From positions 1 to 45,699 of IMG/VR virus record IMGVR_UViG_3300031949_000070: a stretch of 45,699 nt of DNA; one strand, 5' to 3'. This document shows positions 2,928 to 43,452 of the stretch, one piece after another. This stretch comes from a virus. The position numbers and the translations under genes were made by a program. Position 1 is the stretch's first letter, and each line of letters opens with the position of its first letter. The notes beneath the pieces were generated by a model, which saw only the letters and a program-made list of their open reading frames with translations, ran no database searches and was not told the origin of the DNA.

Positions 2928-2934
2928 CTATTAA

Positions 2935-4275: not shown

Positions 4276-4976
4276 TGAATAAACAACAGGCTGACGAAAT
4301 TTTGGCAGACATCCTTACTGAATATCATTGTGTAGAATCAGCACCGCTTAGTGCCAAGGGCTGGAAATCTATACTATTCGCCTTTGACTACAACCTAACT
4401 CAATCAGCACTTACAAAGTTATCCTCTGAGGTTCCGGCGATCACGACATACGGTAAATTGCCAGACATTGAAATTTTTAAGCGAATTTACCGGGAGTTAA
4501 GGGAAAAAGAGAATCCAAAGGAAGATAAAAACAGTTATTGCCCGTGCTGCAAAAATTCTGGCTGGTTGCTATATCAAAAATCAGAAGAGATAGAATATTA
4601 TCCCTGGACAGGAAAATATAAAGGGGGATTAACCCACGTTGAATTTTATAATAAAATGGGTTCGTATCCGGGGATAAATGACGAGGAACATGAAAATTTT
4701 AAGGTTAAAAAAACCGTAACATCGGAATATGTTGTGAAATGCCCACATTTGGGGGATAAGTGGCAGGCTGAATTACAAAAACAGGGATTGGATAAGTGCC
4801 ACAATATGGCCTGTAGTAACCCTGGGCGTAAATCTCGTAGAGAGGTAAGCGCTGGAATGAGCGGAATAGAACGCCACAGGATGAAGGGGTGTATGTACGT
4901 GCAGACGGTAACTGAGTTGCCACCAAGGGCAGCCCGTGACTTTACAGAGCCGAAGGTGGTGGAAATTCCATTTTAA
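4275..4976 (+). CDS. Hypothetical Cys-rich protein (possible helicase-loader-like partner)
   Basis: 233-aa ORF. GTG start overlaps the previous stop (TAGTG). Contains YCPCCKNSGW and further Cys/His. The functional guess is from position only. Confidence 0.5.
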   Translation: MNKQQADEILADILTEYHCVESAPLSAKGWKSILFAFDYNLTQSALTKLSSEVPAITTYGKLPDIEIFKRIYRELREKENPKEDKNSYCPCCKNSGWLLYQKSEEIEYYPWTGKYKGGLTHVEFYNKMGSYPGINDEEHENFKVKKTVTSEYVVKCPHLGDKWQAELQKQGLDKCHNMACSNPGRKSRREVSAGMSGIERHRMKGCMYVQTVTELPPRAARDFTEPKVVEIPF

Positions 4977-5013
4977 TTAAAATAATAGCGGTACAGGCTA
5001 CAGGAGGGCTTCA

Positions 5014-5313
5014 ATGAAAAATATTTCCGCTGAAGATATTGCTTTAACGAGTTTACGAATAGAAGATATTACGCCTTATCTACGTTGCAAAGGATGGAAA
5101 CATAGCCAGAGTCCCAATGATAGGCTTATTGTATTTGAGGGGCAGCAAGATGATGAAGGGCAAACCATTGAATTGATCTTACCCCAACGGAATGATTATG
5201 TAGATACCTACGTTCGACTCGCCGATGCGATTAACCTTCTTGCAGCAGTGGAAAATCGTTCCCCTAATGAAATTATCAAAGCTATTAAAGCCCTTGGAGA
5301 GCAAAGGTATTGA
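5014..5313 (+). CDS. Hypothetical protein
   Basis: 99-aa ORF with a GGAGGG RBS upstream. Confidence 0.55.
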   Translation: MKNISAEDIALTSLRIEDITPYLRCKGWKHSQSPNDRLIVFEGQQDDEGQTIELILPQRNDYVDTYVRLADAINLLAAVENRSPNEIIKAIKALGEQRY

Positions 5314-5325
5314 AAAGGAGAGTAT

Positions 5326-5418
5326 ATGAAAGAGCATCCAATTTTATGGTCAACAAAGATGGTCTTGGAGTTACTGTCCGGGCAAAAGACTTGCACGAGG
5401 GACTTTTCCCAGGAATAG
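5326..5418 (+). pseudogene. 30-codon ORF resembling the N-terminus of ASCH-type phage proteins; probably a truncated relic
   Basis: AAAGGAG RBS, then MKEHPILWSTKMVLELLSGQKTCTRDFSQE and a stop. The PILxSTxMVxxLLxGxKTxTR pattern normally continues for more than 100 aa. Confidence 0.35.
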
Positions 5419-5431
5419 ATGAGCGGTCTGC

Positions 5432-5453
5432 ATTTTATCGAGAAAGCAAGGGG
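5432..5453 (+). repeat. 22-nt direct repeat ATTTTATCGAGAAAGCAAGGGG, copy 1
   Basis: Identical 22-mer at 5631-5652. Each copy encodes ..FIEKARG.. plus the RBS of the next gene. Confidence 0.9.
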
Positions 5454-5461
5454 GATAAAAC

Positions 5462-5659
5462 ATGATAAGGGAGATTGAACTGCCAGAAGATGCCAGATTA
5501 GCCATTGACTTAGAGCGGGCGCTGGATTTGGCGTGTGAAATATTAAGTTCGGAAACCGGCAAATGTCCAGAAGATTGTACCCACGAGAAGGGGGGATGTG
5601 GCAACATAGATTCTGAATGCTGGAAGCGATATTTTATCGAGAAAGCAAGGGGAAAATGA
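5462..5659 (+). CDS. Hypothetical small Cys-rich protein (65 aa)
   Basis: ORF bracketed by the 22-nt direct repeats. Its stop overlaps the next start (ATGA). Confidence 0.55.
   Translation: MIREIELPEDARLAIDLERALDLACEILSSETGKCPEDCTHEKGGCGNIDSECWKRYFIEKARGK
5631..5652 (+). repeat. 22-nt direct repeat ATTTTATCGAGAAAGCAAGGGG, copy 2
   Basis: Identical to 5432-5453. Together the two copies flank ORF 5462..5659. Confidence 0.9.
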
Positions 5660-6273
5660 AAGAATATCATAAGATTAATTCAATATTTAAACGGTCAATT
5701 GACGGTAAAAAAATGTTGTTCGGGGAATACTCAGTACCTGAATTTGATTATCTAAAAAATAATCAATGGCTGTTTACTGAAAAGGTTGATGGGACGAATA
5801 TCCGAGTTATTTGGGACGGAGTAAAGGTTCTGATTAAAGGGAAAACAGACAACGCTCAAATACATTGGCAATTAATTGAGAAAATACAGGCATTGTTACC
5901 TGTGTATAAATTTACAGATATTTTCAAGGATATTCCCCTGTGTCTATATGGGGAAGGCTATGGGGCCGGGATTCAGAAGGGGGGAGGACTTTATAAACTA
6001 GAAAAGGATTTTGTTCTGTTTGATGTAATGATTAACGAAACCTGGCTTGAAAGAAGCAACTGCGAAGATGTGGCTGAAAAACTAGGCATAGAGATAGTAC
6101 CCATCATAGGCCGGGGTACTCTCTTGGACGCACAGGTCAAGGTTGAAACAGGATTTGTTTCAACCTGGGGAAATTTTATTGCAGAAGGGCTGGTAATAAA
6201 ACCAATCATAGAGTTATGTGATCGTCGAGGAGGACGAATAATAACCAAAATTAAACATAGGGATTTCAAATGA
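5656..6273 (+). CDS. ATP-dependent RNA-ligase-like nucleotidyltransferase
   Basis: Start taken at MKEYHKINSIFKR (ATG 5656, AAGGGG RBS). Motif I is TEKVDGTNIRV (KxDGxN). Later motifs are LYGEGYG, EGLVIKP and TKIKHRDF. Confidence 0.6.
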   Translation: MKEYHKINSIFKRSIDGKKMLFGEYSVPEFDYLKNNQWLFTEKVDGTNIRVIWDGVKVLIKGKTDNAQIHWQLIEKIQALLPVYKFTDIFKDIPLCLYGEGYGAGIQKGGGLYKLEKDFVLFDVMINETWLERSNCEDVAEKLGIEIVPIIGRGTLLDAQVKVETGFVSTWGNFIAEGLVIKPIIELCDRRGGRIITKIKHRDFK

Positions 6274-6291
6274 ACCTCTGGGGGTGGAGGA

Positions 6292-6531
6292 ATGAACGAC
6301 AAAATAATTCGTAAAGGCAGCAAGGTTATAAAGTTCTACTGGAAAGAAGTTGAAACAGGGGAACACTATACTCTCTTTGTTGTGCTGGGGAAGTCAGCTA
6401 CCTTTATGGGAGAAGTTTTTCTGTCCTGTGATGATACATGGATCGGCACAGGCGCAGAATGTACTCGCAATCTGTGCAACTCGAAAAACCTCTCATATGC
6501 CATGAAGCGGGTAGAGAAATTGACTATATGA
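6292..6531 (+). CDS. Hypothetical protein
   Basis: 79-aa ORF with a GGTGGAGGA RBS. Confidence 0.5.
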   Translation: MNDKIIRKGSKVIKFYWKEVETGEHYTLFVVLGKSATFMGEVFLSCDDTWIGTGAECTRNLCNSKNLSYAMKRVEKLTI

Positions 6532-6540
6532 GGAGGTAAT

Positions 6541-6801
6541 ATGCCAGATAAAACCTTTTTGTATCCGCAGGCTACAATCGAAATAACGGAAACCGCCGAA
6601 GGGCTGATTATCTTTATTCGGACAAGGGACGGGTACACGAAACAGACCTTTAACATGCTGGATGAGGATAGGATATTTGTTTACAAATATCCCGACAACC
6701 AGCCAACGCTCACGAGCTTACAGGGCATCGCTCCCAACCTTTTATTACCGGGGATTGGTAGTCGAAAGTGGAGAGATGTTTGGAGAAAAAGCAAATGCTA
6801 A
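6541..6801 (+). CDS. Hypothetical protein
   Basis: 86-aa ORF with a GAGGAGG RBS. Confidence 0.5.
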   Translation: MPDKTFLYPQATIEITETAEGLIIFIRTRDGYTKQTFNMLDEDRIFVYKYPDNQPTLTSLQGIAPNLLLPGIGSRKWRDVWRKSKC

Positions 6802-7694
6802 GCAAAATGGCTGAGATGGTGGGGGCAGAGAGGTTGTCAAGGGGCTTGTATTGGACAAGGGCATTAAGTTTGGTCTCTGGATGTACCCACTGTTCCCCTG
6901 GCTGTCATAAATGCTGGAGCGCAGCCGCTACGCATATGAGGGCCTGGAACCCTAATATTAAGATTGCTCGTAACAATCTAGGGCTAACAAATCCCCACGG
7001 CAAGTTTAATGGTAATATCCGGCTACACCCGGAGTTAATAAATTTGCCATCAGTTACTAAAAAACCTACGGTGTGGGCGGTATGGAACGACCTGTTTCAT
7101 GTCGATATTCAATATTCATTTCAGGCCCTGGCATTGTCTGAAATGGCATATAATAAAAGGCACATTTTTATAACATGTACCAAGCGGGCAGATAGGATGC
7201 AGTCTGTAATATCTCGTTTTTACAAAGAGGCCATAGCAAACAAACTTATTCCAGATGAAATTATTCCCATTCCAAATCTTATCACCATGATTACCGCCGA
7301 AAACCAGGACATGGCCGATGAGCGGATACCGTATCTGCTGCAAACGGAATCAGCGTGTCGGGCGGTAAGCGTGGAACCGCTACTGTCTAATATAGATTTT
7401 ACGGCTATTCCTTTTGGCAAAGATTGGGGGAATGAAGATATGCACTATAAAGCCTTGCTAGGCACAGACGTGGAAGGGATTGGTCACTATTCGGTTGTGC
7501 CAAAAGGATATTCAAATAAAATAAACTGGATTACCGTGGGCGCAGAGACCCCGGTCGGCCCCAAGTCCCGCAAGCCGGAATTTGACTGGATAGATAATAT
7601 TCACCAGCAATGCCATGAGGCGGGCGTGCCAATATTCATGAAGAATAGCCTGAAACCATTTTACCGGCACTTGCCGCAGGAGTTTCCGTTATGA
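6795..7694 (+). CDS. Gp37/Gp68-family (DUF5131) phage protein
   Basis: GLYWTRALSLVSGCTHCSPGCHKCWSAA matches the W..W.p..GC...SpGC..C signature of this family. ATG 6795 is preferred because of the GGAGA RBS. Confidence 0.6.
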   Translation: MLSKMAEMVGAERLSRGLYWTRALSLVSGCTHCSPGCHKCWSAAATHMRAWNPNIKIARNNLGLTNPHGKFNGNIRLHPELINLPSVTKKPTVWAVWNDLFHVDIQYSFQALALSEMAYNKRHIFITCTKRADRMQSVISRFYKEAIANKLIPDEIIPIPNLITMITAENQDMADERIPYLLQTESACRAVSVEPLLSNIDFTAIPFGKDWGNEDMHYKALLGTDVEGIGHYSVVPKGYSNKINWITVGAETPVGPKSRKPEFDWIDNIHQQCHEAGVPIFMKNSLKPFYRHLPQEFPL

Positions 7695-7864
7695 ATTCAG
7701 AAAAAGTTTTAAATTCGATAACCATCGCACGTGAATTTTTGGCCCAAGCGGATATTGTGATGGCCAATAGCAATGAATATTTTGGCAATAAGCATACCGC
7801 CCGGCTCCGCCGGTTATCAATGGAGCTAACACGGGCATTGGCAGAGTTGAGGAGGCCATTATGA
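7691..7864 (+). CDS. Hypothetical small protein (57 aa)
   Basis: Below the ORF-track cut-off. Its ATG overlaps the previous stop and its own stop overlaps the next ATG. Confidence 0.45.
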   Translation: MNSEKVLNSITIAREFLAQADIVMANSNEYFGNKHTARLRRLSMELTRALAELRRPL

Positions 7865-7975
7865 TTATGCACGCATTATCTGTCAAACAATCCTTTGCGT
7901 CACTGATTGCCCGTGGGCGCAAGACGAAAGAAACTCGTACTTGGAAGACGAAGTACCGGGGCGACCTGCTGATTT

Positions 7976-8018
7976 GCGCTTGTTTCAGTTCCCTCTTTAT
8001 AGGGAAGATAGCTGCAAT
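7976..8018 (+). repeat. CRISPR-repeat-like unit, copy A (GCGCTT + GTTTCAGTTCCCTCTTTATAGGGAAGATAGCTGCAAT)
   Basis: 42/43 identical to 40464-40506. Internal hairpin TTCCCT-CTTTAT-AGGGAA. The termini GTTTCAG...CTGCAAT are partially inverted. Confidence 0.85.
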
Positions 8019-8037
8019 GCCCGCAAGGGCAAAGGAG
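8019..8037 (+). promoter_or_regulatory. Hairpin-SD junction element (GCCCGCAAGGGC + AAAGGAG), copy 1 of 7
   Basis: 4-bp GC stem with a GCAA loop, directly abutting the RBS, 5 nt before ATG 8043. Confidence 0.7.
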
Positions 8038-8042
8038 AAAAA

Positions 8043-9170
8043 ATGAATATCCATGATGCGGCCAGGAACGGCCACACTGAAGCTGTAGCGTTGCTCCTGG
8101 CAAAGGGGGCAAAGGTTGAAGCTGCGGACAACAACGGCAATACCCCGCTGATAGTGGCGGCCAGGGAAGGCCACACTGAAACCGTAGCATTGCTCCTGGA
8201 AAAGGGAGCAAATATTGAAGCTGCGGATAAATACGGGAATACTCCGCTGATATTAGCGGCCTGGGAAGGCCACACTGAAGCCGTGGCGTTACTCTTGGCA
8301 AAGGGAGCAAATATTGAGGCTGCGGATAATGACGGGGATACTCCGCTGATATGGGCGGCCAGGGAAGGCCGCACTGAAGCCGTGGCATTGCTCCTGGCAA
8401 ATGGGGCAAAGGTTGAAGCTGCAAATAACTGCGGGGATACCCCGCTGATATTAGCGGCCGGGCATGGCCACACGGAAACCGTGGAGTTACTGAAAAAACA
8501 TATTGCCAATCTCATAAACTGCCGTCCAATGACCATAGCCGAGGAGCTGCAAATGCCAGAATTTGCCACCGATAAAATAAAATGTAAGCCATTCACGGCC
8601 ATTATTTCGGCTGGCTTACATTTAATAGCAATAGACCCGGCTTATGCCAAGCCGGTAGCTACAGCTCAATTTAAGCGCCCGCAGCGGGGCGATGGCATGA
8701 CTGGCAATGATATTATATTAGAGCGGGTAGATTATATCAGCCTTGAGGCTCTGTTGCGCTCACCGGGGACGGTAATCACTCTTGAGAACCACGCCAGGCG
8801 AATTCTTGTTATTGAGCGCCAATATTTGGGCAAGAATGCAAAAGTCTTTGGCGAACTTTGCTACTGGACTGGCAGGGTGGTGCAGAAGATAGCGGACATG
8901 GGTTTTGAAGTGGTGGAGGCCCCGGTATATCCGGCCAAGGGCAAGGGCTGCACCTCTTGGCTACAGGACGTGTTTGGCATACAGGGGAATTTGCCAAACA
9001 GCTCCACGATACAAGAAATGGCGCTCAGGATAGCACGGGAAGATAATCCGTATTATCTTTGGGATGAAGAAACTCAGGCGGCATCAAAAGAGTTTAAATT
9101 TAATTTTAATTATGATACTGCCATGGCTTATTGTATGGGGATGTGGTGGATTAAGAAGAATAAATTTTAA
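8043..9170 (+). CDS. Ankyrin-repeat protein running in frame into a RuvC-like resolvase (fusion ORF)
   Basis: ATG 8043 follows the hairpin-SD element. About five 33-aa ANK units (G.TPL..AA..GHTE.V.LLL.KGA..EA.D). There is no stop before the resolvase part. Confidence 0.7.
   Translation: MNIHDAARNGHTEAVALLLAKGAKVEAADNNGNTPLIVAAREGHTETVALLLEKGANIEAADKYGNTPLILAAWEGHTEAVALLLAKGANIEAADNDGDTPLIWAAREGRTEAVALLLANGAKVEAANNCGDTPLILAAGHGHTETVELLKKHIANLINCRPMTIAEELQMPEFATDKIKCKPFTAIISAGLHLIAIDPAYAKPVATAQFKRPQRGDGMTGNDIILERVDYISLEALLRSPGTVITLENHARRILVIERQYLGKNAKVFGELCYWTGRVVQKIADMGFEVVEAPVYPAKGKGCTSWLQDVFGIQGNLPNSSTIQEMALRIAREDNPYYLWDEETQAASKEFKFNFNYDTAMAYCMGMWWIKKNKF
8070..8500 (+). repeat. Tandem 99-bp (33-codon) ankyrin units, ~4.5 copies with high DNA identity
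   Basis: GGCCACACTGAAGC-type unit starts recur at 8070, 8169, 8268, 8367 and 8466, an exact 99-nt period. Confidence 0.85.
8553..9170 (+). CDS. RuvC-like Holliday-junction resolvase (possible independent internal start)
   Basis: GAGGAG RBS at 8541-8546 then ATG 8553. HLIAIDPAYAKP (catalytic Asp), LVIERQYLGKN (Glu) and a C-terminal NYDTAMAYCMG (DAxAxA-like). Confidence 0.55.
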   Translation: MPEFATDKIKCKPFTAIISAGLHLIAIDPAYAKPVATAQFKRPQRGDGMTGNDIILERVDYISLEALLRSPGTVITLENHARRILVIERQYLGKNAKVFGELCYWTGRVVQKIADMGFEVVEAPVYPAKGKGCTSWLQDVFGIQGNLPNSSTIQEMALRIAREDNPYYLWDEETQAASKEFKFNFNYDTAMAYCMGMWWIKKNKF

Positions 9171-9272
9171 GTCTGAAGATCGTGGGGCTTAAGCCTGGGT
9201 GTTAGAAGATATCAGGCCGGTTAAGCCATTTATGGCTAAGGGGAAAATGGGAATTTTTAAGGTGGACATACC

Positions 9273-9845
9273 ATGCCAGAACTTACCACTGATAAAATAA
9301 AGTGCGAGCCATTTAGAGCTACAATTTCGTCTGAACGCTGCTGGTGGAACCGGCAATCCGGTAAATATGGAGACACGTGCCGAAATTGCAAACGGGCGAA
9401 TATGCCAAAACCGGAAATGGTGAAATGTGTCCCAACATCAAAAAAGACACCACTAATATTTATATCAAAACCAAAACCTGAATCAAAAAAAGAGGAAAAA
9501 CTGATTATGCCAGAAAATCAACATGTAAAAAAATGTCGGACATGTGGCTATAAAATAGCAATAAAAGATGACCAATGCTCGGCTTGCTACCGGAAGGAAA
9601 AAGGCGTTACGATTACAAGCGTTCGTAGTAAGGCTAAAGAAGAGTCTATTAAAAAAATCTTGCCTAACGGAGAAATGGTGGGGTTGCTTTTTATAGATGA
9701 AGAGAAATCCATGTTGGATACTTTGCGCCAGAATGCCAAAGTAAATTATCGTACCCTGGAAGGGGAAATAATGTACCGATTGAAAATGTCAGTTTGCGAT
9801 GAACTCCCAAAAGAAAACAGTCGTAAATTTGAGGTAGAACCGTAA
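9273..9845 (+). CDS. Zinc-ribbon-containing hypothetical protein
   Basis: 190-aa ORF with Cys pairs (KC..., CRNC, CRTCGY...CSAC). Its N-terminal 19 aa are duplicated at 8553. Confidence 0.55.
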   Translation: MPELTTDKIKCEPFRATISSERCWWNRQSGKYGDTCRNCKRANMPKPEMVKCVPTSKKTPLIFISKPKPESKKEEKLIMPENQHVKKCRTCGYKIAIKDDQCSACYRKEKGVTITSVRSKAKEESIKKILPNGEMVGLLFIDEEKSMLDTLRQNAKVNYRTLEGEIMYRLKMSVCDELPKENSRKFEVEP

Positions 9846-32258: not shown

Positions 32259-32597
32259 TTACCGATGATTTGTTTCGGGCAAATCACCCGTTGATTTTGC
32301 CAAGTCAAAGGCATTTTTGCCTTCGTCATACAAATTTTTGGTGATATTAAGAATAAAATTCCCATAAAATTCCATTTTGGTTTTAGCTATTGCAATCTTC
32401 ATCCTATTTTCCACTGAAATTTCACCCTTTATAGCAACTTCCATACCAATGTTACTTAGAATAACCTTAGTCCTTTCGGCAACTTCAAATGACAATCTCT
32501 CAATCAGTTGCCAGGCAAGGTCATTTTTCAATTTATCGGCCAACACACCATCATCCATTTTCTGCGCCAATAATTCCAAATCTTCTTTTTGAATCAT
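32259..32597 (-). CDS. Hypothetical head-module protein
   Basis: 112-aa ORF. Its start overlaps the portal stop. Confidence 0.5.
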   Translation of the reverse strand: MIQKEDLELLAQKMDDGVLADKLKNDLAWQLIERLSFEVAERTKVILSNIGMEVAIKGEISVENRMKIAIAKTKMEFYGNFILNITKNLYDEGKNAFDLAKSTGDLPETNHR

Positions 32598-34399
32598 TGC
32601 ATCATCCCCATTCCAGGCTTTATTCCACCACCAACTTGCGGAGCAAGTGTTCCCTGGATATTGGCCGGGCCACCACTATTACCTTGTTCCGGTATTGGAG
32701 GATTGGCATTAAACAGGTATTTTCGATAATTCTTCATGCCCAAATCCGGCAACACATCTTCCATTACAGCGGTAATATCGAACAATTTTGCCCCTTGCGG
32801 CAAAGCGCCAGGCACTTGAAGCAACCCGACTGTAACCTGGTTAGATAAAACCATCTTATCAATTGCCAGAAATTGTTGTTGAAGCCTAAACCCTCTGGAT
32901 ACCTTATCTAATCCTACAGTCAGGATTATATCAGCCTCAAAATCGTCTATATCGAGAATGTTTTCCTCTTGTGGCATTAAGGTACTCTTTTTCCTGAGCA
33001 CCTCATTGGCTACCCGGAACACATTTTTGTCAGTCTCAAATAACTGTATCAGGTTTGCCAATTGTAGATAGAATCCCCGCATAAAGGTTTCTCCTACCAT
33101 GGCAATAAGTAAATCCAGTTTGGCGTTACTCTCATTCAGGTTTATCTGGGCTACAGTGGCCTTTGCCTCCATACTTCCAGAACCTTGTTTGATTGGGGTC
33201 ACACCAGACAGTTCATTCATCATGGCTTCATCGGCAGCCACTTCCTGGTATGCTCCAAGGGTAACGTTTGCAGTTGGCAACTGAGTTACGGCAGCCTGGG
33301 CATCATCAGCCAGGACAACACCCCCAACCCGAACGTTTACCAGACTAGCAAGGTCAACATTTGCATACCGATTAACTATACTCATTGGACTCATGCCAAG
33401 AGCAAGCTCATCCTTGCGCATATTCAGGATAGAATTGATACTTTCCTGTGGCCCCTCCAGCACCTGTGGAAACCCTTCCCCAATGAGTTTATGCGCTTCG
33501 ATTAAACCCATTCCGATCACCACAGGAAAACAGTAATTTCCAAATAGTGAATCCACCGGTTCTTTCAGTAATTGTTCGACCCCAAGAGATACCGCAAATT
33601 TAATCTTGCCTTTTTCACGCCAGAATATTTCCCATACTTCATACTTTTCTGAGGTATCTTGTTTTTCCTGGGTTGAAAGTTTATCTGGGGCAGGATATTT
33701 ATTCTCACTCACCACCTGTTGAGGGTCAGTCTGGCCTGAATATCTTGCTGCACGAACAGAATTAGAAGGCATAGAAGATTCCGGCAATTCAGATATATCA
33801 ATTTTATCCAAGTATCCCTGTTCTCTCATCCAATCTTCAGATTTATAATTTCGGAATATTATATATTGCATTTGGGAAGGAGTTTCAGCAGACATGTCAA
33901 CCGAAACCTGTTCAGGTGGATACAATACGAAACAAGGCCGGTCTTCATCCTCCAGCCATGTCATTTTAGCAACCGCCCATGAACAATCCCAAATATCCTG
34001 GAATGCCTGGATAAACTGAACATAAAGGTCATCCCGCCGCCGCATTTGCCGTATCCGATACTCCATCATAGCCTGTAATACTTCGGCCTTACGAGGATCA
34101 TCTATGGTATCCACACCTTCAACCTTAAAGGTGTCCATATCCCGAAGATATGCTTCGTAAAAAGTTGCAACCGTTCGACAACGTTCAGCCCAGATTTTGC
34201 GAAAGAAAATCTTGGCTTTCCCTCGAACTTTAGATTTTAAATATTCATCTCCTGGAAAAATACCCTTAATTAACTGGATATTTTTAGACCAGCGGGAAAA
34301 ATATGCCGATTGTAAGGTTTCACTTTCCTTGTTCCAGCCGGAAACCTTATTCAGGAATTCTTTTTCATCAAAAGTAGGTTTTGTGTCTTTATTTTCCAT
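32594..34399 (-). CDS. Portal protein
   Basis: 601 aa, located between the terminase and scaffold/capsid genes. Assigned by size and synteny. Confidence 0.6.
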   Translation of the reverse strand: MENKDTKPTFDEKEFLNKVSGWNKESETLQSAYFSRWSKNIQLIKGIFPGDEYLKSKVRGKAKIFFRKIWAERCRTVATFYEAYLRDMDTFKVEGVDTIDDPRKAEVLQAMMEYRIRQMRRRDDLYVQFIQAFQDIWDCSWAVAKMTWLEDEDRPCFVLYPPEQVSVDMSAETPSQMQYIIFRNYKSEDWMREQGYLDKIDISELPESSMPSNSVRAARYSGQTDPQQVVSENKYPAPDKLSTQEKQDTSEKYEVWEIFWREKGKIKFAVSLGVEQLLKEPVDSLFGNYCFPVVIGMGLIEAHKLIGEGFPQVLEGPQESINSILNMRKDELALGMSPMSIVNRYANVDLASLVNVRVGGVVLADDAQAAVTQLPTANVTLGAYQEVAADEAMMNELSGVTPIKQGSGSMEAKATVAQINLNESNAKLDLLIAMVGETFMRGFYLQLANLIQLFETDKNVFRVANEVLRKKSTLMPQEENILDIDDFEADIILTVGLDKVSRGFRLQQQFLAIDKMVLSNQVTVGLLQVPGALPQGAKLFDITAVMEDVLPDLGMKNYRKYLFNANPPIPEQGNSGGPANIQGTLAPQVGGGIKPGMGMMQ

Positions 34400-34552: not shown

Positions 34553-34732
34553 TTAAGGTTTTCTCCTAACTGTTTTTTTCGTATCCTCAGTTTCTATTAT
34601 CCGCATCCCATCAATACGTCCCCTGTTTGGGTTATTTATGAAACAACTCTCATGTGCTTTACGATTATATTCATCTAACCAATCCTTTGGTTCCCCTGTC
34701 ATATTTTCTAGATAATAACAATATTTTTCCAT
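34553..34732 (-). CDS. Small hypothetical protein (59 aa)
   Basis: ATG overlaps the TerL stop (TAATG). Sequence begins MEKYCYYLENMTGEPKDWLDEYNRKAHE... Confidence 0.45.
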   Translation of the reverse strand: MEKYCYYLENMTGEPKDWLDEYNRKAHESCFINNPNRGRIDGMRIIETEDTKKTVRRKP

Positions 34733-37131
34733 TAATAATTCGATTCTGCCATTGGCACAGATTGCACTGGCGGCAACCAACCTACATTACGTTGATTTAC
34801 ATACCTAAAACAAGCATGATTATCCCACTTACCTTCAAGTATTTTATCCTTCATGCCCAATTTTTCTTCATTCACGAAAGAATCCCGCTCCATATTTTTG
34901 AAGGCATTCATAATCAATCTATTCTCAGGTATATCAAATATTCTCAATTTTGGCAATTTAAAAATGGGGTCTACCTTCAATAATTGCTTAATTTTATCAA
35001 TTCCAGCCGAAATTGAACCGAAAAATTTCTCCGAAGTCATTAATCCTGGTATAGCATTATTACCCCGCTTCAACTCTTTATAAATATTAATATCACCCAA
35101 AATTCGCAGGTTACTATTTGTTGAGGTATCACATACAGACCATCCAAGCCGATAATTTCTCTCTTGCGCTCGTTGAGCCAGCGCAAATTTTAATTCCTCA
35201 GTATCCACGGCTTGCTGATAACATCCAGTGATAAACTGAAGCCCTTCCCTATTTACAGCAACCTCAGTACACGCAGACGCCTTGGTTAAATGTGGGTCTA
35301 CCCCTCGATACACGATAAAACTATCATCCAGGTCAAACGGCTGAATCAAATGCAGCTTCTCGTTAAACAGATTACCATAAACCAAACCAGACAACGAGAC
35401 GAAGGCTCCCATAAGCCTCATCTTTATCGTAGGATAATCCAGTCCGGTTAAAATCTCCCTCAATGTTTCCAGTTTCGCATACCGATTACATATTGACGGC
35501 ATTTTAAAGCAGGATATCCGCACCCCGTCTTCTTTATCTAAAATATCCTCTTTTATCCATGTTAACCCCTCTGTAGGGGTCATACTAAATAAAATTTTTA
35601 ACCGGTCAGCCGTTATAAACCGGGCCTTGGTTTCCTCGTATTTATCCTTGTCCGGCTGCTCATCGAAAATAGCCCACTGTAACGGATTCCCCTGAAACCC
35701 TCTTGTATCCTGCTCATTGGTTTTAAATTGGACGGTACTTATTGGCCGCCGATCACCTGAATACAATGTAAGCGTTTTATACTCCGCTGACCAACTCTTT
35801 GACCAGTCCCCATCCAATAAAAATTTCTTAGGCAGCCACCTTTCCCATGCCTTCAGAATTATCATGTTCAGGGAAGTATTATCTACTCCCGTCACACGCC
35901 CATAAACCGGCCAAGAGGTAGGTAATTTACTTTTAGGATATATTCCCTCCAAACTTAACGGCAACTCTCCTGTAGACCATATAATGCCCTCTACAGTGGC
36001 AAGCGTTGTATTGTGATGAACCAAACCTCCGGCAAAATAATTATGATATTTTTCAACCTCAAAGTCATAAACTTCTTGTTGACAGGGAATCAAGTCGCAT
36101 GATACAATCTGATTACCTTCTACATATAAAGGAAATAAATTTGAATAACCTTCATGGTCTAAAAATTGATTCTGATCGTCTTCGTTATCTGATAGAGATT
36201 CAGAAGATGACTCAGAAACAGGCTGCAAAAGCTCTTGATGTTTATATTTCGACTGTTGAAAAGTGGTGTAAAAAACTTCACCTGTCAACTCAACGTCCTG
36301 GGCCTCGTCGTGGAGAACAACACCCGGATTGGAAGGGTGGATACAAACTGACAAAGGGTTATCAGTATGTTTATTGTCCTGAACATCCGAATTGCACGAA
36401 GTCCCGGTACGTTGCTGAACACCGGCTTGTAATGGAACAAAAAATTGGCCGTTTTTTAGAAAAACACGAGACTGTTCATCATATTGATGGAAATCGCCTG
36501 AACAACCATCCAAGTAATCTAATGGTTTTTCAGAACAATGCTGCTCATTTAAAACATGAGCTGACTGGGAAATGTCCAAACTGGACTCCTGAAGGCAAGG
36601 CAAGAACCCTTTTAGGCGCTCAACGGTGGCGTAATTACCGTCATTCATTAAAACACGGTGCAAATCAGCAGCCTCTACCCAGCGACCATCTGACATCGTT
36701 ATCCGATAACACCAATGAATTCCAGGTTTCTTAAATGGAGCGGAAGCATTTGCTATTACTTTTTTCCCCCCATCCCAGGCATATACCTTAAACGGTTTAC
36801 CTTCTTTAAAAAGCAAACCAATCGTTTTCGCACCATCAACTGTATCTATAACTGTTTGATAAGTAAGACATTTTCCACCCTGATTGCCCCCTCCCGCCAA
36901 TATTATAGGCACATCACTTAAATGCACATCCCGCTGACTATCCAATCTGCCCTGTGGCACATCCTCTGGCAGCAACCACTCTTCCAAAAATCGCTTATGT
37001 TCATCATCCACCACCCCATCCGATGGCAAATAATCCCAGAACGGCTCCTCTACATTCACCGAGGCCACAACCTTCTGCAACTCTGCCAACTTAACCATCA
37101 AATCAGACGTGGAAACATTGCTTAAATCCAT
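34732..37131 (-). CDS. terL: Terminase large subunit, interrupted in frame by an intein
   Basis: Walker A GGNQGGK|T is split between K87 and T375. Walker-B-like LQWAIFDEQP lies downstream. Removing residues 88-374 leaves a 512-aa TerL. Confidence 0.85.
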   Translation of the reverse strand: MDLSNVSTSDLMVKLAELQKVVASVNVEEPFWDYLPSDGVVDDEHKRFLEEWLLPEDVPQGRLDSQRDVHLSDVPIILAGGGNQGGKCLTYQTVIDTVDGAKTIGLLFKEGKPFKVYAWDGGKKVIANASAPFKKPGIHWCYRITMSDGRWVEAADLHRVLMNDGNYATVERLKGFLPCLQESSLDISQSAHVLNEQHCSEKPLDYLDGCSGDFHQYDEQSRVFLKNGQFFVPLQAGVQQRTGTSCNSDVQDNKHTDNPLSVCIHPSNPGVVLHDEAQDVELTGEVFYTTFQQSKYKHQELLQPVSESSSESLSDNEDDQNQFLDHEGYSNLFPLYVEGNQIVSCDLIPCQQEVYDFEVEKYHNYFAGGLVHHNTTLATVEGIIWSTGELPLSLEGIYPKSKLPTSWPVYGRVTGVDNTSLNMIILKAWERWLPKKFLLDGDWSKSWSAEYKTLTLYSGDRRPISTVQFKTNEQDTRGFQGNPLQWAIFDEQPDKDKYEETKARFITADRLKILFSMTPTEGLTWIKEDILDKEDGVRISCFKMPSICNRYAKLETLREILTGLDYPTIKMRLMGAFVSLSGLVYGNLFNEKLHLIQPFDLDDSFIVYRGVDPHLTKASACTEVAVNREGLQFITGCYQQAVDTEELKFALAQRAQERNYRLGWSVCDTSTNSNLRILGDINIYKELKRGNNAIPGLMTSEKFFGSISAGIDKIKQLLKVDPIFKLPKLRIFDIPENRLIMNAFKNMERDSFVNEEKLGMKDKILEGKWDNHACFRYVNQRNVGWLPPVQSVPMAESNY
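36079..36108 (+). promoter_or_regulatory. Sigma70-like promoter TTGACA-N18-TACAAT, antisense to terL and upstream of the HNH gene body
   Basis: Hexamers at 36079-84 and 36103-08. They lie inside the coding sequence of the intein C-terminal splicing domain. Confidence 0.5.
36099..36734 (+). CDS. HTH + HNH homing endonuclease encoded antisense within the intein
   Basis: HTH is MTQKQAAKALDVYISTVEKWCKKL. HNH part is GYQYVYCPEHPN...YVAEHRLVMEQKIGRFLEKHETVHHIDGNRLNNHPSNLMVFQNNAAHLKH. The start is uncertain: ATG 36099, TTG 36141 (AAGGAA RBS, downstream of the promoter) or ATG 36207. Confidence 0.8.
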   Translation: MIQSDYLLHIKEINLNNLHGLKIDSDRLRYLIEIQKMTQKQAAKALDVYISTVEKWCKKLHLSTQRPGPRRGEQHPDWKGGYKLTKGYQYVYCPEHPNCTKSRYVAEHRLVMEQKIGRFLEKHETVHHIDGNRLNNHPSNLMVFQNNAAHLKHELTGKCPNWTPEGKARTLLGAQRWRNYRHSLKHGANQQPLPSDHLTSLSDNTNEFQVS

Positions 37132-37464
37132 TTATCCGCCATACTCATAGTGATTCCCATCTACCCGCTTGAAATCCCCACCCCACCGGTTCAACGAATC
37201 CAACCGTTTCCAATATTCTCCAAGTGGCCGATGTGATTCTGTATCTGCCAGGTACACACCATCCTTATACAGGTCTATATCCGCAGCCAAAGCCTCAAGG
37301 TGCTTAGAATTTATTATCCCCTTACCTTGCTGCATATAAATCTGCACAACCTCTCTAGGCCGCTTTACCTCAGCCAAGGCCACCCCATAACCCTGAGACT
37401 TTGCCCATAAACAAAGTTCAGCTATCATCTCTGTAAAATGAATCCGCTTGGCTGATAATTTCAT
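37132..37464 (-). CDS. Peptidase M15 (VanY/L-Ala-D-Glu peptidase-like) endolysin
   Basis: SKHLEALAADID (H-x6-D) and RWGGDFKRVDGNHYEY give the H..D..H zinc-ligand pattern. 110 aa. Confidence 0.7.
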   Translation of the reverse strand: MKLSAKRIHFTEMIAELCLWAKSQGYGVALAEVKRPREVVQIYMQQGKGIINSKHLEALAADIDLYKDGVYLADTESHRPLGEYWKRLDSLNRWGGDFKRVDGNHYEYGG

Positions 37465-37727: not shown

Positions 37728-38291
37728 TCACTCATCTGTATCACGCATATCAAGTGGCTTAGTAATATCTGTCATGTTGATATCATGTGCTACTGCTATG
37801 CTCTGCCTGCGCTTAAGCTCACTCGTAATCTCTGATATCGCCTGCTGCGCTTGTGATACCACGCTGCGAGTGCTGATATTCTCCGTACTCCGGCCTTGCG
37901 CTAATAATCTGGCATGGTTAACCTGGCTAAATGCATACGCAGTATTGTTTAGCGAGGCATTTGCCCTTTTGGCAGGGTCAAGCAGGTCAAGGGCAAGCTC
38001 CGATTCTACAGTTGCAAGAAATGTAGCTTCCCTTACTTGGTAGGCTTTAGCTTGACTTGCTATAGATATTCTGTTCAGGTATGGCTGAAGTGCCTCTTGT
38101 ACGGCCTGTTTAGAGACACCATACATTTTGGCAATAGAGGGGTAGGTCAAGCCGTTGACACAGCGTAATCGCAATATTTCGCCGAGCGGTAATTTGCCAC
38201 ATTTGCGGTGGATAGATAGTGATTTTTGGGCTTGCTTGGGGGTTTGCTGGTCTATGTCCAGAGTAGTATCTATGTCCAGAGTAGTATCCAT
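37728..38291 (-). CDS. HTH DNA-binding protein (regulator or small-terminase candidate), apparently leaderless
   Basis: HTH is LTYPSIAKMYGVSKQAVQEAL. N-terminal MDTTLDIDTTLDID arises from an 18-bp tandem duplication. The ATG lies 6 nt after a consensus -10. Confidence 0.6.
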   Translation of the reverse strand: MDTTLDIDTTLDIDQQTPKQAQKSLSIHRKCGKLPLGEILRLRCVNGLTYPSIAKMYGVSKQAVQEALQPYLNRISIASQAKAYQVREATFLATVESELALDLLDPAKRANASLNNTAYAFSQVNHARLLAQGRSTENISTRSVVSQAQQAISEITSELKRRQSIAVAHDINMTDITKPLDMRDTDE

Positions 38292-40035: not shown

Positions 40036-40446
40036 ATGAAATACATAACAGCAACAGAACCACCCAAATTTACCAATATGCAAATGGCCATGGCAAAGCG
40101 CCTGGGACTAAATCTTTCAGATTTAGATCCAAATGATAAAAGATTAAGAATAGACTATCCTCCTCTGGGATATTATAGCTTTTCCAAAGCTATAAGGGAA
40201 ATTGCAGGAAAGCACCAGGACATTGTATCCAGGGGGGGAGGTAGGAATTTTTATTACATCTCTTTAAGTAAGAGCTGTAATAAGTTAATTACTATGATAA
40301 GAGGGCTTCAGCAAGAAGCTCCTCAAAGAGAGGGTGCAAAAGAGCTTCGTCTGATGTGGGGAAAGGAACTCCACAAAATCTGGACGGACGAACTCAAATA
40401 CACAGCTGGATATTGGCACTTGGGGTGGGTAGAGCTTGAGAGATAA
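40036..40446 (+). CDS. Hypothetical protein, paralogue A1 (136 aa)
   Basis: Shares GYYSFSKAI.EI.GK.QDIVSRGGGRNFYYISLS.SC.KLI..IR.LQ.E.PQRE.AKELR.MWGKEL...W..EL.Y.A.YWHLGWVEL with 41796..42239. Confidence 0.65.
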   Translation: MKYITATEPPKFTNMQMAMAKRLGLNLSDLDPNDKRLRIDYPPLGYYSFSKAIREIAGKHQDIVSRGGGRNFYYISLSKSCNKLITMIRGLQQEAPQREGAKELRLMWGKELHKIWTDELKYTAGYWHLGWVELER

Positions 40447-40463
40447 ACTCTCAAGCTGATGAG

Positions 40464-40506
40464 GCGCTTGTTTCAGTTCCCTCTTTATAGGGAAGATATC
40501 TGCAAT
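40464..40506 (+). repeat. CRISPR-repeat-like unit, copy B
   Basis: GCGCTTGTTTCAGTTCCCTCTTTATAGGGAAGATATCTGCAAT, one mismatch against 7976-8018. Confidence 0.85.
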
Positions 40507-40677
40507 AGCGGATGGGGTGCGAGGAGTCTGGCCCGGTTGATGGGCTGCGGAAGTGGCACACCCGTCATGAAGGAATTGAAAGGCAAAGCAGAGATGTAGT
40601 ATATCTGCTCAACAATATAGAAGACGACGGGGGGAAATAACAAAACTCGCCTGGTGCAGCGAGCATAAACAAAGCCC

Positions 40678-40702
40678 AGTCCCTACGAAGAGGGAACTTA
40701 AC
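40678..40702 (-). repeat. Inverted, degenerate copy of the 5' part of the CRISPR-repeat-like unit
   Basis: The minus strand reads GTTAAGTTCCCTCTTCGTAGGGACT against GTTTCAGTTCCCTCTTTATAGGGAAG. It keeps the same TCCCT/AGGGA hairpin. Confidence 0.6.
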
Positions 40703-40767
40703 CAAATACAGTATATGTAATTTTAAAAGATAAACAAAAACTGAATTTGAGGAAACAGTATAAAAAG

Positions 40768-41241
40768 ATGTTTACTATAGATTTTTTAACTCCGTTAAAT
40801 TTAAGCCCAAAACTTTCGAGAACAACAGCCTGGAGAGTAAAAAAAGGTATTTCTCCAGGCGTTGGCCAGGATTATATAAATCCCTGGCCTGAGAAACTAA
40901 AAATAAATAGCTGTAGAACTAAAAATAAAGAAAGAAAACCACTAAAAAATATTACTCCTTTTAAAACTACAATTAATATAAACGAATTACAAAAAATAGC
41001 AGCATATGCTACAAAAACAGTAGCTGTTAAACTAAAAATATATGAATATCAAATGTTCTATGAATACCGCAAAGATTGTATTCAGGAATGCTTGACTTTA
41101 ATATTTGAATTGTCTAACAAGCACAAAAACAACAAACATATTGCAATGAAGATTGCAATAAATGCGGCATTTAAGTTTTGGTGCAGTGTTTGTAAATGGT
41201 TTGTGCATAACGAACAGGGGGCAGGAGATGAGTGTAATTAA
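40768..41241 (+). CDS. Hypothetical protein in an AT-rich insert
   Basis: ATG 40768 (MFTIDFLTPL...). Lys/Asn-rich. No family recognised. Confidence 0.5.
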   Translation: MFTIDFLTPLNLSPKLSRTTAWRVKKGISPGVGQDYINPWPEKLKINSCRTKNKERKPLKNITPFKTTININELQKIAAYATKTVAVKLKIYEYQMFYEYRKDCIQECLTLIFELSNKHKNNKHIAMKIAINAAFKFWCSVCKWFVHNEQGAGDECN

Positions 41242-41602
41242 GCATGTAAAATTATTTGCTTCGTTCATTCCAAGCGAAGCACTTTGCAAACAGATTTTGG
41301 CTTTTGTAAAATGGAAGAAGGGGGGGAGGACTAACCGTCTTTTTTATTTTCAAAAGCCCGGCACGATAATAAAGCTATATGCACCAGAAAAATTGCAGGC
41401 AGGAACTCATTGTACGGTGTCTATAGTTGAAAAAACAATTTCAAAAATTCAGGGAACCAAAACAAAAATTGTGATTGTTCCTAACAGTTTTAAGTTTGAT
41501 GAGGGTCGTTTATTTCCACAGGCAGAGATTGCCAAAGAAATATATAAATCAATAGGAGCCTGTCATGAAAGCAGAGAAAGAATAAATAATACCTTGAGTT
41601 AA
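41228..41602 (+). CDS. Hypothetical protein in an AT-rich insert
   Basis: ATG 41228 (MSVIKHVKLF...) overlaps the previous gene's end. Confidence 0.5.
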   Translation: MSVIKHVKLFASFIPSEALCKQILAFVKWKKGGRTNRLFYFQKPGTIIKLYAPEKLQAGTHCTVSIVEKTISKIQGTKTKIVIVPNSFKFDEGRLFPQAEIAKEIYKSIGACHESRERINNTLS

Positions 41603-41795
41603 AAAATATACCGGCGGGCAAGGCTGGTTGTTCTTGCCCTGTTAGCGGCGGTTGTATTGGCTGTGGTGATATATCAATTGTGTGGGCTGCGGCGGAGTGG
41701 CGGTCGGCGGCGCAGGGCTAGGGTCATCACCGAAAAGCGGATAACCTCGCCGCCTGCCCTGCTCAATCTTGAGTTAGCCAGAGGAGGCTATTATT

Positions 41796-42239
41796 ATGAA
41801 ATACGTACCAGCAGCAGAACCTTCAAGTCTTACCAGAGCTCAAACTTGGCAAGCGAAGCGCCAGGGACTAAAACTGTCAGCCAGGGCGGTGGCCGCCTGG
41901 GAAAGACTAGAAAGAGGGGAGACGATCGGATATTATAGCTTTTCCAAAGCTATAAAAGAAATCGAAGGGAAGCCCCAGGACATTGTGTCCAGGGGAGGGG
42001 GAAGAAACTTTTACTATATATCACTAAGCCGTAGCTGTAAAAAATTGATTTCAATTATAAGGGAACTTCAGCTGGAAGTTCCCCAAAGAGAAAATGCGAA
42101 AGAACTTCGCATAATGTGGGGCAAGGAACTCCAAAAATACTGGAGAAAGGAGCTGATGTATAAGGCCAGGTACTGGCACCTGGGGTGGGTAGAGTTACCT
42201 GCCGAAGGAAAAAACAGAAGTGAAGGCTGCAATAAATAA
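41796..42239 (+). CDS. Hypothetical protein, paralogue A2 (147 aa)
   Basis: Paralogue of 40036..40446 with a GAGGAGG RBS. Confidence 0.65.
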   Translation: MKYVPAAEPSSLTRAQTWQAKRQGLKLSARAVAAWERLERGETIGYYSFSKAIKEIEGKPQDIVSRGGGRNFYYISLSRSCKKLISIIRELQLEVPQRENAKELRIMWGKELQKYWRKELMYKARYWHLGWVELPAEGKNRSEGCNK

Positions 42240-42402
42240 ATAAATAAATTGATCAAAATTATAAGAGAGCTTCACAGCGAGCCTAAACAAAGCTCACCGG
42301 GGACGGGGTGCGAGGAGTCTGGTTTCGTTTTCGGCTCCGGTTCCGGGGATGGGGTGCGGATATTTTAATTTATTTGCGTTATGGTGATTGCAACAACTTA
42401 AC

Positions 42403-42421
42403 GCCCGCAAGGGCAAAGGAG
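42403..42421 (+). promoter_or_regulatory. Hairpin-SD junction element (AACTTAAC + GCCCGCAAGGGC + AAAGGAG), copy 4
   Basis: Followed by ATG 42428. Confidence 0.7.
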
Positions 42422-42427
42422 AAAAGC

Positions 42428-42643
42428 ATGTGGTACGCAGAACGTTTGATAAATGATGGAAGAGCAGATTTGACAGATAAAAAAGGGAAGGTCGATCAGC
42501 GAAAAGCTAATTTAATCCGAATCTTGGGCAATGCTCAGTTACATTTAGTCAAACCTTATCCAAGTGCTTGGGGATATTTTGATAATTATGTTAAAGCGTT
42601 AAGGTCTATACAACTGAACGAGTTCCCATCTGAGCGTGATTAA
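42428..42643 (+). CDS. Hypothetical small protein (71 aa)
   Basis: ATG positioned after the hairpin-SD element. The longer ORF-track form (42308) would read through repeat debris. Confidence 0.55.
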   Translation: MWYAERLINDGRADLTDKKGKVDQRKANLIRILGNAQLHLVKPYPSAWGYFDNYVKALRSIQLNEFPSERD

Positions 42644-42651
42644 ACCCAAAG

Positions 42652-42732
42652 TTGGCGGCCAGGGGAGGCCGCACTGAAGTTGTGACATTGCTGAAAAACC
42701 ATATTGCCAAAACCGGCAAGCAAATAACTTAA
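42652..42732 (+). pseudogene. Orphan 3' relic of an ankyrin-repeat gene
   Basis: Reads LAARGGRTEVVTLLKNHIAKTGKQIT then a stop. Nearly identical at the DNA level to the GCGGCCAGGGAAGGCCGCACTGAAGCCGTGGCATTGCT units of the intact gene at 8043. Confidence 0.75.
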
Positions 42733-42733
42733 C

Positions 42734-42745
42734 GCCCGTAAGGGC
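42734..42745 (+). promoter_or_regulatory. Hairpin GCCCGTAAGGGC, copy 5 (degenerate SD; GAGG further downstream)
   Basis: Preceded by ATAACTTAAC. ATG 42765 follows. Confidence 0.6.
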
Positions 42746-42764
42746 AAGAAATGAGGTCATTCGC

Positions 42765-42968
42765 ATGGGGAAAAACAAAAAAGGAAGGCCATCCGGGGTT
42801 GTTGAACCGGGGCGACAGGTGTCCGGCTGGATACCAGCCGATGACTATGAAATTTTAATGGCGATAACGAAGACCGAAGGGCGGTCTCTATCAAACCTGC
42901 TGGCAAAGATGGTGAGGGATAAGATTGCCAGCTACAAAAATGGGCGGGCGATGGATGAAAGGGGATAA
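42765..42968 (+). CDS. Ribbon-helix-helix (CopG/Arc-like) protein
   Basis: RQVSGWIPADDYEILMAITKTEGRSLSNLLAKMVRDKI fits a beta-strand plus two-helix RHH pattern. Confidence 0.6.
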   Translation: MGKNKKGRPSGVVEPGRQVSGWIPADDYEILMAITKTEGRSLSNLLAKMVRDKIASYKNGRAMDERG

Positions 42969-42970
42969 AA

Positions 42971-43120
42971 ATGTACGATGATTATGATGATTATTACGCT
43001 AGTGTAGACGCCAATGAACGTAAGGTTGAACGCCGCTGGCGGTGGGCACTGGCGATACTCATTACGGCAATTGTTACCGCAATTGTCTGGCAATTGTTTT
43101 TTATCTATGGGGGAAAATAA
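42971..43120 (+). CDS. Small single-TM protein (49 aa)
   Basis: Not in the ORF track. Sequence is MYDDYDDYYASVDANERKVERRWRWALAILITAIVTAIVWQLFFIYGGK. Its stop overlaps the next ATG. Confidence 0.5.
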   Translation: MYDDYDDYYASVDANERKVERRWRWALAILITAIVTAIVWQLFFIYGGK

Positions 43121-43452
43121 TGGAAATCGGGGACGTATTGTGGAAGTTGCGAAAGCGGTCGGGGCTGGCGCAAAGGAATATTGAAAAATCTTGCGGGCTG
43201 AAACGAGCACATCTGTCCAAGATAGAAACTAACGGACTTAAAAACCCGACTATCAAGACTGTGAGAAAAATTGTGGGGGCGCTTGGGCTGAAAATGTCGG
43301 ATGTGTTTCTGTTCTTGGAGCAAAACAAAATCTCGGAAGCCGTAGCCGAAAAGTTCCAGCGGCCCCCGGTTAACACGGAGACGCTCAGGGAAACAGAGAA
43401 GGCCATTGTATCCTTAGAGGCCACGCATAACGCTGGCAAATGTGTACGATAA
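43120..43452 (+). CDS. XRE-family HTH regulator (110 aa)
   Basis: Start taken at MEIGDVLWKLRKRSGLAQRNIEKSCGLKRAHLSKIETNGLKNPTIKTVRKI, a typical HTH_3 pattern. Confidence 0.7.
   Translation: MEIGDVLWKLRKRSGLAQRNIEKSCGLKRAHLSKIETNGLKNPTIKTVRKIVGALGLKMSDVFLFLEQNKISEAVAEKFQRPPVNTETLRETEKAIVSLEATHNAGKCVR

Follow-up and report, generated by a model that had tools for sequence, protein, structure and literature searches.

The window analyzed here, a stretch of 45,699 nucleotides (nt) comprising positions 1 to 45,699 of the IMG/VR virus record IMGVR_UViG_3300031949_000070, carries on its minus strand a gene for the large terminase subunit (TerL) that is interrupted by a putative intein, and the DNA encoding this intein holds a gene for a predicted HNH endonuclease on the opposite strand. 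The TerL precursor is a single open reading frame (ORF) of 799 amino acids at positions 34732 to 37131 in the ORF listing. Alignment with intein-less homologues (alignment A1) delimits an N-extein (36871 to 37131; TerL residues 1 to 87), whose last residues, GGNQGGK, form the first part of the Walker A motif, and a C-extein (34732 to 36009), which runs from the T of GK|T through the stop codon. Between them lies an intein of 287 codons (36010 to 36870; TerL residues 88 to 374) that starts with Cys1 (36868 to 36870), ends with an Asn (36010 to 36012), and is followed by a +1 Thr (36007 to 36009). Its sequence begins with CLTYQTVIDTVDG (CLTYQ...) and ends with GGLVHHN before the Thr, and the splicing residues in TerL numbering are C88 ... 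H373 N374 | T375. As for the identity of the interrupted gene, the closest database relatives are large terminase subunits, including protein P0002 (68% identical), to which the Joint Genome Institute (JGI) gives that name. Several TerL homologues match Terminase_6N or Terminase_6C, the spliced TerL sequence itself gives a weak match to Terminase_6N (E = 0.0024), and an SU10-type portal gene (32594 to 34399) adjoins TerL downstream.

Alignment with four intein-less homologues (P0002 and P0004 to P0006) placed the insertion site exactly at GGNQGGK|T/S in Walker A, which agrees with a first-pass annotation of the window, made from the letters alone, that had described this motif as split by a 287-codon insert. 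The P-loop site is uninterrupted in the DNA of the nearest intein-less relative; at the intein-less TerL site of locus L066 we read GGCGGGGGGAACCAGGGGGGGAAAACCACTCTG, with the junction at GGGAACCAGGGGGGGAAA|ACCACT. The same annotation had recognized class-1 intein boundaries (Cys1, a C-terminal His-Asn, and Thr at +1), and these held across the family: C1, H71, H286, and N287 do not vary among the 52 sequences of alignment A4, and the +1 residue is T or S at all 95 intein boundaries that could be delimited.

An AlphaFold model of the intein, built with 51 homologues, gave a predicted local distance difference test score (pLDDT) of 92 to 98 for residues 1 to 90 and 245 to 287 (93 to 95 in the C-terminal part, from about residue 245). 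Residues 91 to 244 appeared as coil almost without secondary structure, with a pLDDT of about 40 to 50. Foldseek matched the model to the Ssp and Npu DnaE, DnaB, and RecA mini-inteins with E values down to 7.7e-6 and a probability of 1.00, and the template modeling score against Npu DnaE was 0.79. Together with the codon-position variability described below, the insert can be divided into an N-terminal splicing region (intein residues 1 to 85; 36616 to 36870; pLDDT 92 to 98), a linker (residues 86 to 241; 36148 to 36615) that is open, predicted to be disordered, and without amino-acid-level selection, and a C-terminal splicing region (residues 242 to 287; 36010 to 36147) that has an intein-type codon pattern and matches TIGR01443 (intein_Cterm) at 23.3 bits, above the cut-off of 15.6. 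The first-pass impression that the central ~155 codons of the intein frame look like filler was thus confirmed by this 156-residue linker. From sequence and predicted structure, we classify the insert in the TerL P-loop as an intein of the class-1 type, presumably one that splices.

On the plus strand, the same DNA is open over 36006 to 36734 and encodes, at 36141 to 36734, a protein of 197 amino acids with a TTG start and a TAA stop (36732 to 36734). The plus-strand ORF matches HNH_3 (PF13392) with an E value of 2.1e-10 and 40.5 bits against a cut-off of 24.8, and HTH_28, HTH_23, and HTH_3 give weak Pfam matches upstream of the HNH_3 domain, which bears out the earlier identification of a helix-turn-helix (HTH) plus HNH endonuclease on this strand. 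The AlphaFold model of the protein (50-sequence alignment; pLDDT 88.1) folds into a three-helix N-terminal domain (residues 11 to 45, confidently predicted) and a beta-beta-alpha nuclease domain. Foldseek returned the homing endonuclease I-HmuI (1u3e) among the top structural matches of the nuclease domain (probability 0.93) and HTH domains such as those of DosR, NarL, and DeoR for the N-terminal domain; with the whole two-domain model it gave weak E values only (at least 0.09), and when the HNH profile was searched against PDB sequences, nothing but a designed HTH repeat protein matched. H113, H114, N122, N126, N133, and H136, which include the catalytic His/Asn/His columns, are invariant in 50 HNH sequences. 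Besides, tblastn with the HNH protein found free-standing phage HNH endonucleases at 30 to 48% identity. The C-terminal tail is unstructured (pLDDT of about 66 to 68), has an intein-type variability pattern, and overlaps, together with the stop codon, intein residues 46 to 85 (36616 to 36734). Two alternative start codons were considered and rejected: an ATG at 36099 falls inside the promoter spacer, and an ATG at 36207 would drop a confidently predicted helix that is present in relatives.

The two genes overlap in a phase in which plus-strand codon position 1 pairs with minus-strand position 1, position 2 with position 3, and position 3 with position 2, and a plus-strand codon ending in TT, CT, or TC creates a stop on the minus strand when the next base is A. 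A hand count in the first-pass annotation had given about 40 such at-risk codons between 36141 and 36734, none of them followed by A; our count is exactly 40 and 0. When the HNH gene of the window was shuffled synonymously, a check proposed at the time, the intein frame stayed open in 0 of 20,000 shuffles with 9.2 (range, 9 to 12) stops expected. The same shuffling across 39 unique loci gave about 256 expected stops against 0 observed, and the frame is likewise open in the same phase at ten further loci, which were not shuffled. Free-standing HNH relatives, by contrast, contain 4.25 stops per 100 codons in the equivalent phase. Furthermore, Phe is followed by I, M, T, N, or K at 0 of 117 Phe residues in nested HNH proteins versus 34 of 138 in free-standing relatives; both Phe codons are at risk, and the overlap thus constrains the sequence of the HNH protein itself. 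Selection maintains the open intein frame. The sole point in favor of an open antisense frame, or an HNH-like antisense translation, having arisen without selection is that long antisense frames are in general not unusual opposite coding sequences. Such an origin is vanishingly improbable, being refuted by the shuffles and by conservation in 49 loci; the HNH_3 match and the Phe-context bias also speak against it.

The continuity of this frame also bears on whether the locus is a fractured gene, in which TerL would be made as two polypeptides carrying split-intein halves that splice in trans, with the endonuclease gene between them. An endonuclease gene does lie between the N- and C-terminal splicing regions, as in the fractured genes of Dassa et al. 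2009 in the part of that work available, and gene callers split the TerL locus in some contigs. However, TerL is a single uninterrupted ORF of 799 codons, and the avoidance of every expected stop in the linkers of the 39 loci makes sense only when the linker is translated; no signal for separate initiation of the C-terminal half was noticed, although no dedicated search was made. We consider a fractured gene highly improbable.

Which of the two frames is selected for its protein changes along the insert. We computed the entropy of each codon position across the 39 unique loci and found that in intein residues 1 to 85 and 242 to 287 the third position of the intein codon is the most variable, whereas in residues 86 to 241 intein position 2, equivalent to HNH position 3, is the most variable and intein position 3 the least. 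In the close pair of loci L013 and L017, 50 of the 75 differences in the HNH core fall at HNH third positions, and the HNH codon changes comprise 40 synonymous versus 18 nonsynonymous ones, each of which alters a linker residue. The linker read in the sense frame is 22 to 43% identical to its relatives, as against 41 to 59% for the HNH frame. Given the entropy signature and the low identity, the linker is an open spacer only: over ~156 codons, amino-acid selection acts on the HNH frame, and the intein frame is merely stop-free. The linker is more hydrophilic than shuffled versions in 38 of 39 loci and enriched in Q, E, S, and L, and a separate selection for hydrophilicity was not counted since these are the residues that replace stop codons. 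Strict dual coding is confined to the edges, that is, to the HNH tail over residues 46 to 85 and to the promoter and 5' untranslated region (UTR) over the start of the C-terminal region. The 'selection for dual coding' suggested at first therefore stands insofar as selection keeps stops out of the intein frame, but it does not extend to amino-acid selection on both frames over the ~156 codons.

Upstream of the HNH gene, a putative sigma-70-type promoter lies on the plus strand at 36079 to 36108 (TTGACA at 36079 to 36084, an 18-nt spacer, and TG-n-TACAAT to 36108), in line with the TTGACA-N18-TACAAT element of the first-pass annotation; it matches the consensus at 11 of 12 positions and has a TGn extension. 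The end of the -10 hexamer is 32 nt from the HNH start. A Shine-Dalgarno sequence, AAGGAA, is read at 36129 to 36134, 6 nt 5' of the TTG, and the AAGGAA-TTG start initially placed at 36141 proved homologous in position to the start of 38 relatives among the 39 unique loci, all of which have ATG where the window has TTG. In relatives, this start mostly lies 125 to 134 nt ahead of the intein end, AGGAG or GGAGG precedes it by 6 to 9 nt in most cases, and most have a promoter of the TTGACA-N17/18-TATAAT type whose -10 hexamer ends mostly 29 to 39 nt before the start. The promoter score is 12/12 in six loci and at least 10/12 in 22 of 39, a score that 3.4% of the control windows taken from these loci reach. 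The promoter, the 5' UTR, and the HNH start codon all lie antisense within the DNA coding for the intein's C-terminal splicing region, and the surrounding late structural genes are all on the strand opposite to the HNH gene. The conserved signals and the orientation of the late genes support, but do not prove, an HNH expression independent of the late operon and of late TerL. The earlier suggestion that the endonuclease is uncoupled from late terminase expression thus gains indirect support from the positional conservation of these signals.

The same observations speak to the view that the HNH ORF is a decaying, unexpressed relic and that the intein frame alone matters. Homing endonuclease genes commonly decay after fixation, as is also discussed in a preprint by Gosselin, Arsenault, and Gogarten (bioRxiv 10.1101/2025.01.02.630785), and the window copy begins with TTG rather than ATG. 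Nevertheless, the ORF is intact in 49 of 49 loci, variability in its frame is concentrated at third positions and synonymous changes are in excess, the 50 aligned sequences do not differ in the catalytic His/Asn/His columns, and the promoter, Shine-Dalgarno sequence, and start codon are conserved. Lineages that lost the HNH gene show up as mini-inteins and not as pseudogenes, and we saw neither frameshifts or stops in many HNH relatives nor a ratio of nonsynonymous to synonymous substitution rates near 1. A relic is thus very unlikely.

A survey of metagenomic terminase inteins for this layout, which had been proposed on the basis of the window, recovered it in 49 distinct loci. Among the TerL matches in the protein database, 96 of 102 have an intein at the same site, of which about 80 are 262 to 340 amino acids long and about 15 are mini-inteins of 132 to 201 amino acids; the HNH protein family comprises 152 matches. 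One relative, locus L001 (TerL 47% identical to that of the window), has the same antisense HTH-HNH ORF. Scanning IMG/VR with the TerL alignment gave 58 loci (a scan with a single TerL protein as the query gave no match), and every long-intein locus among them has an antisense HNH protein 41 to 59% identical to that of the window, whereas 0 of 3 complete mini-intein loci has one. Ten more loci from other assemblies and GTDB genome bins have the same layout, and all 49 distinct loci have a stop-free intein frame, an intact HNH ORF, and an identical phase. The closest TerL (P0002) is without an intein, whereas one at 47% identity carries it. Mini-intein members of 132 to 174 amino acids, at the same TerL site and without HNH, comprise loci L043, L044, and L049 and proteins P0032, P0044, P0058 to P0061, P0068, P0079, P0081, P0082, P0086, and P0095. 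Some mini-inteins sit in exteins 73 to 78% identical to HNH-carrying ones, which suggests repeated loss of the endonuclease gene. The splicing regions are about 56% identical on average across the family, which is thus old, and their identity correlates weakly with that of the exteins (Spearman 0.38). Neither a megablast search with the TerL region nor a tblastn search with the intein found a match in 50,697 phage records. As far as such comparisons go, the element is a large family of uncultured, non-actinophage metagenomic contigs that has no detectable counterpart among GenBank phages, and its sporadic distribution is consistent with mobility and with loss of the endonuclease gene.

This distribution also helps to judge whether the HNH protein may be functional without being the homing enzyme of the intein, acting instead in packaging, as a nuclease against competitors, or through an antisense transcript that regulates TerL. 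In the HK97 gp74 class, a small HNH protein of the PF01844 type is encoded beside the terminase genes and needed for cos cleavage. HNH proteins beside terminase genes are common in phages according to PMC3592412, purifying selection on the HNH gene would hold whatever its target, and recent homing is not demonstrated by our family comparisons. On the other hand, the HTH plus HNH_3 architecture is that of free-standing homing-type enzymes, and in structure the protein most resembles I-HmuI, a homing endonuclease; PF01844 had no Pfam match in the HNH protein, which gave HNH_3 and HTH instead. Besides, HNH is present in every long form and absent from every mini form of the intein-family loci, and relatives with a mini-intein or no intein package their DNA without the HNH gene. 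We regard a role other than homing as unlikely.

Our preferred reading, to which we assign a probability of roughly 0.8, is that a composite mobile element occupies the Walker A codons of TerL, consisting of an intein and an HNH homing gene antisense to it. According to this reading, the late TerL mRNA, from the minus strand of the window, would be translated straight through the 287-residue intein, and intein residues 1 to 85 and 242 to 287 would fold together into a HINT splicing domain, its halves joined by an unstructured linker of ~156 residues for which the absence of stop codons may be the only sequence requirement. Splicing would then excise the intein and restore GGNQGGK-T. The opposite strand of the linker DNA encodes an HTH plus HNH_3 endonuclease of the free-standing type, and a host-type sigma-70 promoter, a Shine-Dalgarno sequence, and a start codon would allow HNH to be made independently of, and probably before, late TerL. 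Most likely, HNH would act as a homing endonuclease: when a related phage with an intein-less TerL allele infects the same cell, HNH would cleave or nick that allele in or close to the conserved P-loop codons, after which recombinational repair would copy the intein and the HNH gene together. The element probably arose once, when a free-standing HNH gene entered the loop of a mini-intein; it would then have spread, with HNH lost now and then.

Several points weigh against this reading. Splicing of the intein, activity of the promoter, initiation at the TTG, and the specificity of cleavage are predicted properties. In the searches with hidden Markov models for intein domains, a check recommended in the first-pass annotation, TIGR01443 exceeded its cut-off, and TIGR01445 (intein_Nterm; 22.4 bits versus 24.5) and Pfam Intein_splicing (PF14890; 32.6 bits versus 35.8) came slightly under theirs. 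In the block B motif TxxH, His71 is invariant, and the position of the Thr is taken family-wide by Ala68 (A-D-x-H; alignment A4). The consensus used in the promoter scan was of the E. coli type and may not fit the hosts. Furthermore, among the family members compared, no two inteins were nearly identical while their exteins differed clearly, and recent homing is not demonstrated; the best homing-like pair, L013 and L017, is modest, with inteins 90% identical and exteins about 80%.

It is about an even question whether the element is, beyond this, a long-lived and widespread composite, in which the HNH gene is permanently nested antisense, the partners are mutually adapted, the endonuclease is expressed early and independently of TerL, and an antisense RNA possibly acts on the late TerL message. 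If so, the intein provides ~156 unconstrained, disordered codons, and the HNH protein is restricted against antisense stops.

Variants of the layout were also seen. At L009 (1791 to 2495) and L039 (3212 to 3943), the nested HNH gene has a duplicated N-terminal HTH module, which accounts for unusually long inteins of 340 and 337 amino acids, respectively. At L073 (2483 to 3010, plus strand), on the Mycobacterium sp. metagenome-assembled genome contig DATMMZ010000308.1, a 44% identical HTH-HNH protein is encoded antisense in a 278-amino-acid insert (C...HHN) that splits the P-loop (GESG|...|GGKS) of a ClpX/AAA_2-like ATPase and not of a terminase. This insert has no Pfam intein match, and Gly follows HHN; an extein switch and a degenerate intein are among the possible explanations. 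Proteins P0064, P0093, and P0094 (TerL of 1049 to 1206 amino acids) and L063 (1 to 788) have additional LAGLIDADG-type matches, so that either this TerL or the neighboring gene may hold another intein, of the canonical kind.

Gene calling at L061 (2345 to 3591), L063 (2339 to 3498), and L065 (1607 to 3561) kept HNH and truncated or fragmented TerL, whereas the annotations of the window's own record and of P0003 have the complete TerL but lack the HNH gene. Such loci are a systematic annotation trap, at which gene callers miss HNH or truncate TerL. The window is approximately the whole 45.7-kb contig, with a minus-strand structural block at 10443 to 38291 and plus-strand blocks at 91 to 9845 and 40036 to 43452; no tRNA genes were found in it. 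Among its ORFs of at least 120 amino acids, the HNH gene is the sole plus-strand one in the late block with functional evidence. Directly upstream of TerL, a minus-strand gene at 37132 to 37464 encodes an endolysin-like Peptidase_M15_4 protein of 110 amino acids, and upstream of it, also on the minus strand, a gene at 37728 to 38291 encodes a 187-amino-acid protein with an HTH or sigma-70 region 4-like motif, which might be the small subunit of the terminase or have a regulatory role.

The locus would provide a natural example of a free-standing homing gene and an intein that have become one mobile unit without ever being fused, and it supports the model of intein evolution in which the splicing domain comes first and the endonuclease invades later. 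The rare antisense architecture now reaches the HNH family and a large group of uncultured phages. In addition, the antisense overlap is quantified, with one frame selected for protein and the other for openness, sharp boundaries between them, and a measurable cost to HNH. Of use in engineering may be a natural intein in which a disordered linker of ~156 residues is tolerated, as well as HNH enzymes that probably target a conserved terminase site. Terminase P-loop inteins of mycobacteriophages and other phages have reportedly been treated by Kelley and by Novikova, each with co-workers, in 2016, and the insertion in the window likewise lies in the nucleotide-binding P-loop of TerL.

The antisense architecture is not new. 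The first-pass annotation knew of no antisense-nested endonuclease, and in this it was mistaken: anti-sense LAGLIDADG endonucleases have been on record since 1998 in the Synechocystis DnaX and Chloroflexus SpoVR-like proteins (Gorbalenya 1998 and Gogarten 2002, as cited in bioRxiv 10.1101/2025.01.02.630785), and VSR-like ones are described in the same preprint. In it, Gosselin, Arsenault, and Gogarten report 63 noncanonical inteins of actinobacteriophages in four types of host protein, including the large terminase subunit; these have an anti-sense LAGLIDADG, an anti-sense VSR-like, a frame-3 endonuclease VII-like, or an in-frame HNH ORF, and are proposed to originate from free-standing endonuclease genes that invade inteins. 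In the literature searched, we found neither the antisense HNH type, which is unreported there, nor a conserved internal promoter, a frame-switch analysis, or the metagenomic family of the window.

As in the anti-sense-endonuclease inteins of that preprint, the element of the window has a separate opposite-strand ORF between the splicing blocks, an intein frame open throughout, and an in-frame stretch without a recognizable fold; the large terminase subunit is among the host proteins that the preprint lists, and the same invasion origin is proposed. Compared with the actinophage set, the family of the window is metagenomic, large, and old, with a positionally conserved promoter and ribosome-binding site. 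It shares with in-frame HNH inteins and with I-HmuI (1u3e) a beta-beta-alpha-metal nuclease plus a DNA-binding module, together with its association with an element that splices itself out of a conserved gene of the phage, although here HNH is unfused, on the other strand, in the order HTH then HNH, and subject to the Phe-context restriction. Like the fractured genes of Dassa et al. 2009, as cited in the preprint, it has a free-standing endonuclease gene at the point where inteins carry their endonuclease, but TerL is unsplit, the intein is contiguous, and the frame is actively kept open. Finally, the endonuclease of the window has only HNH_3 and HTH matches, whereas the anti-sense enzymes in the preprint are LAGLIDADG or VSR-like and its HNH is in-frame only. 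Thus, the element is set apart from the antisense types described so far by an endonuclease that is HNH_3/HTH rather than LAGLIDADG or VSR-like.

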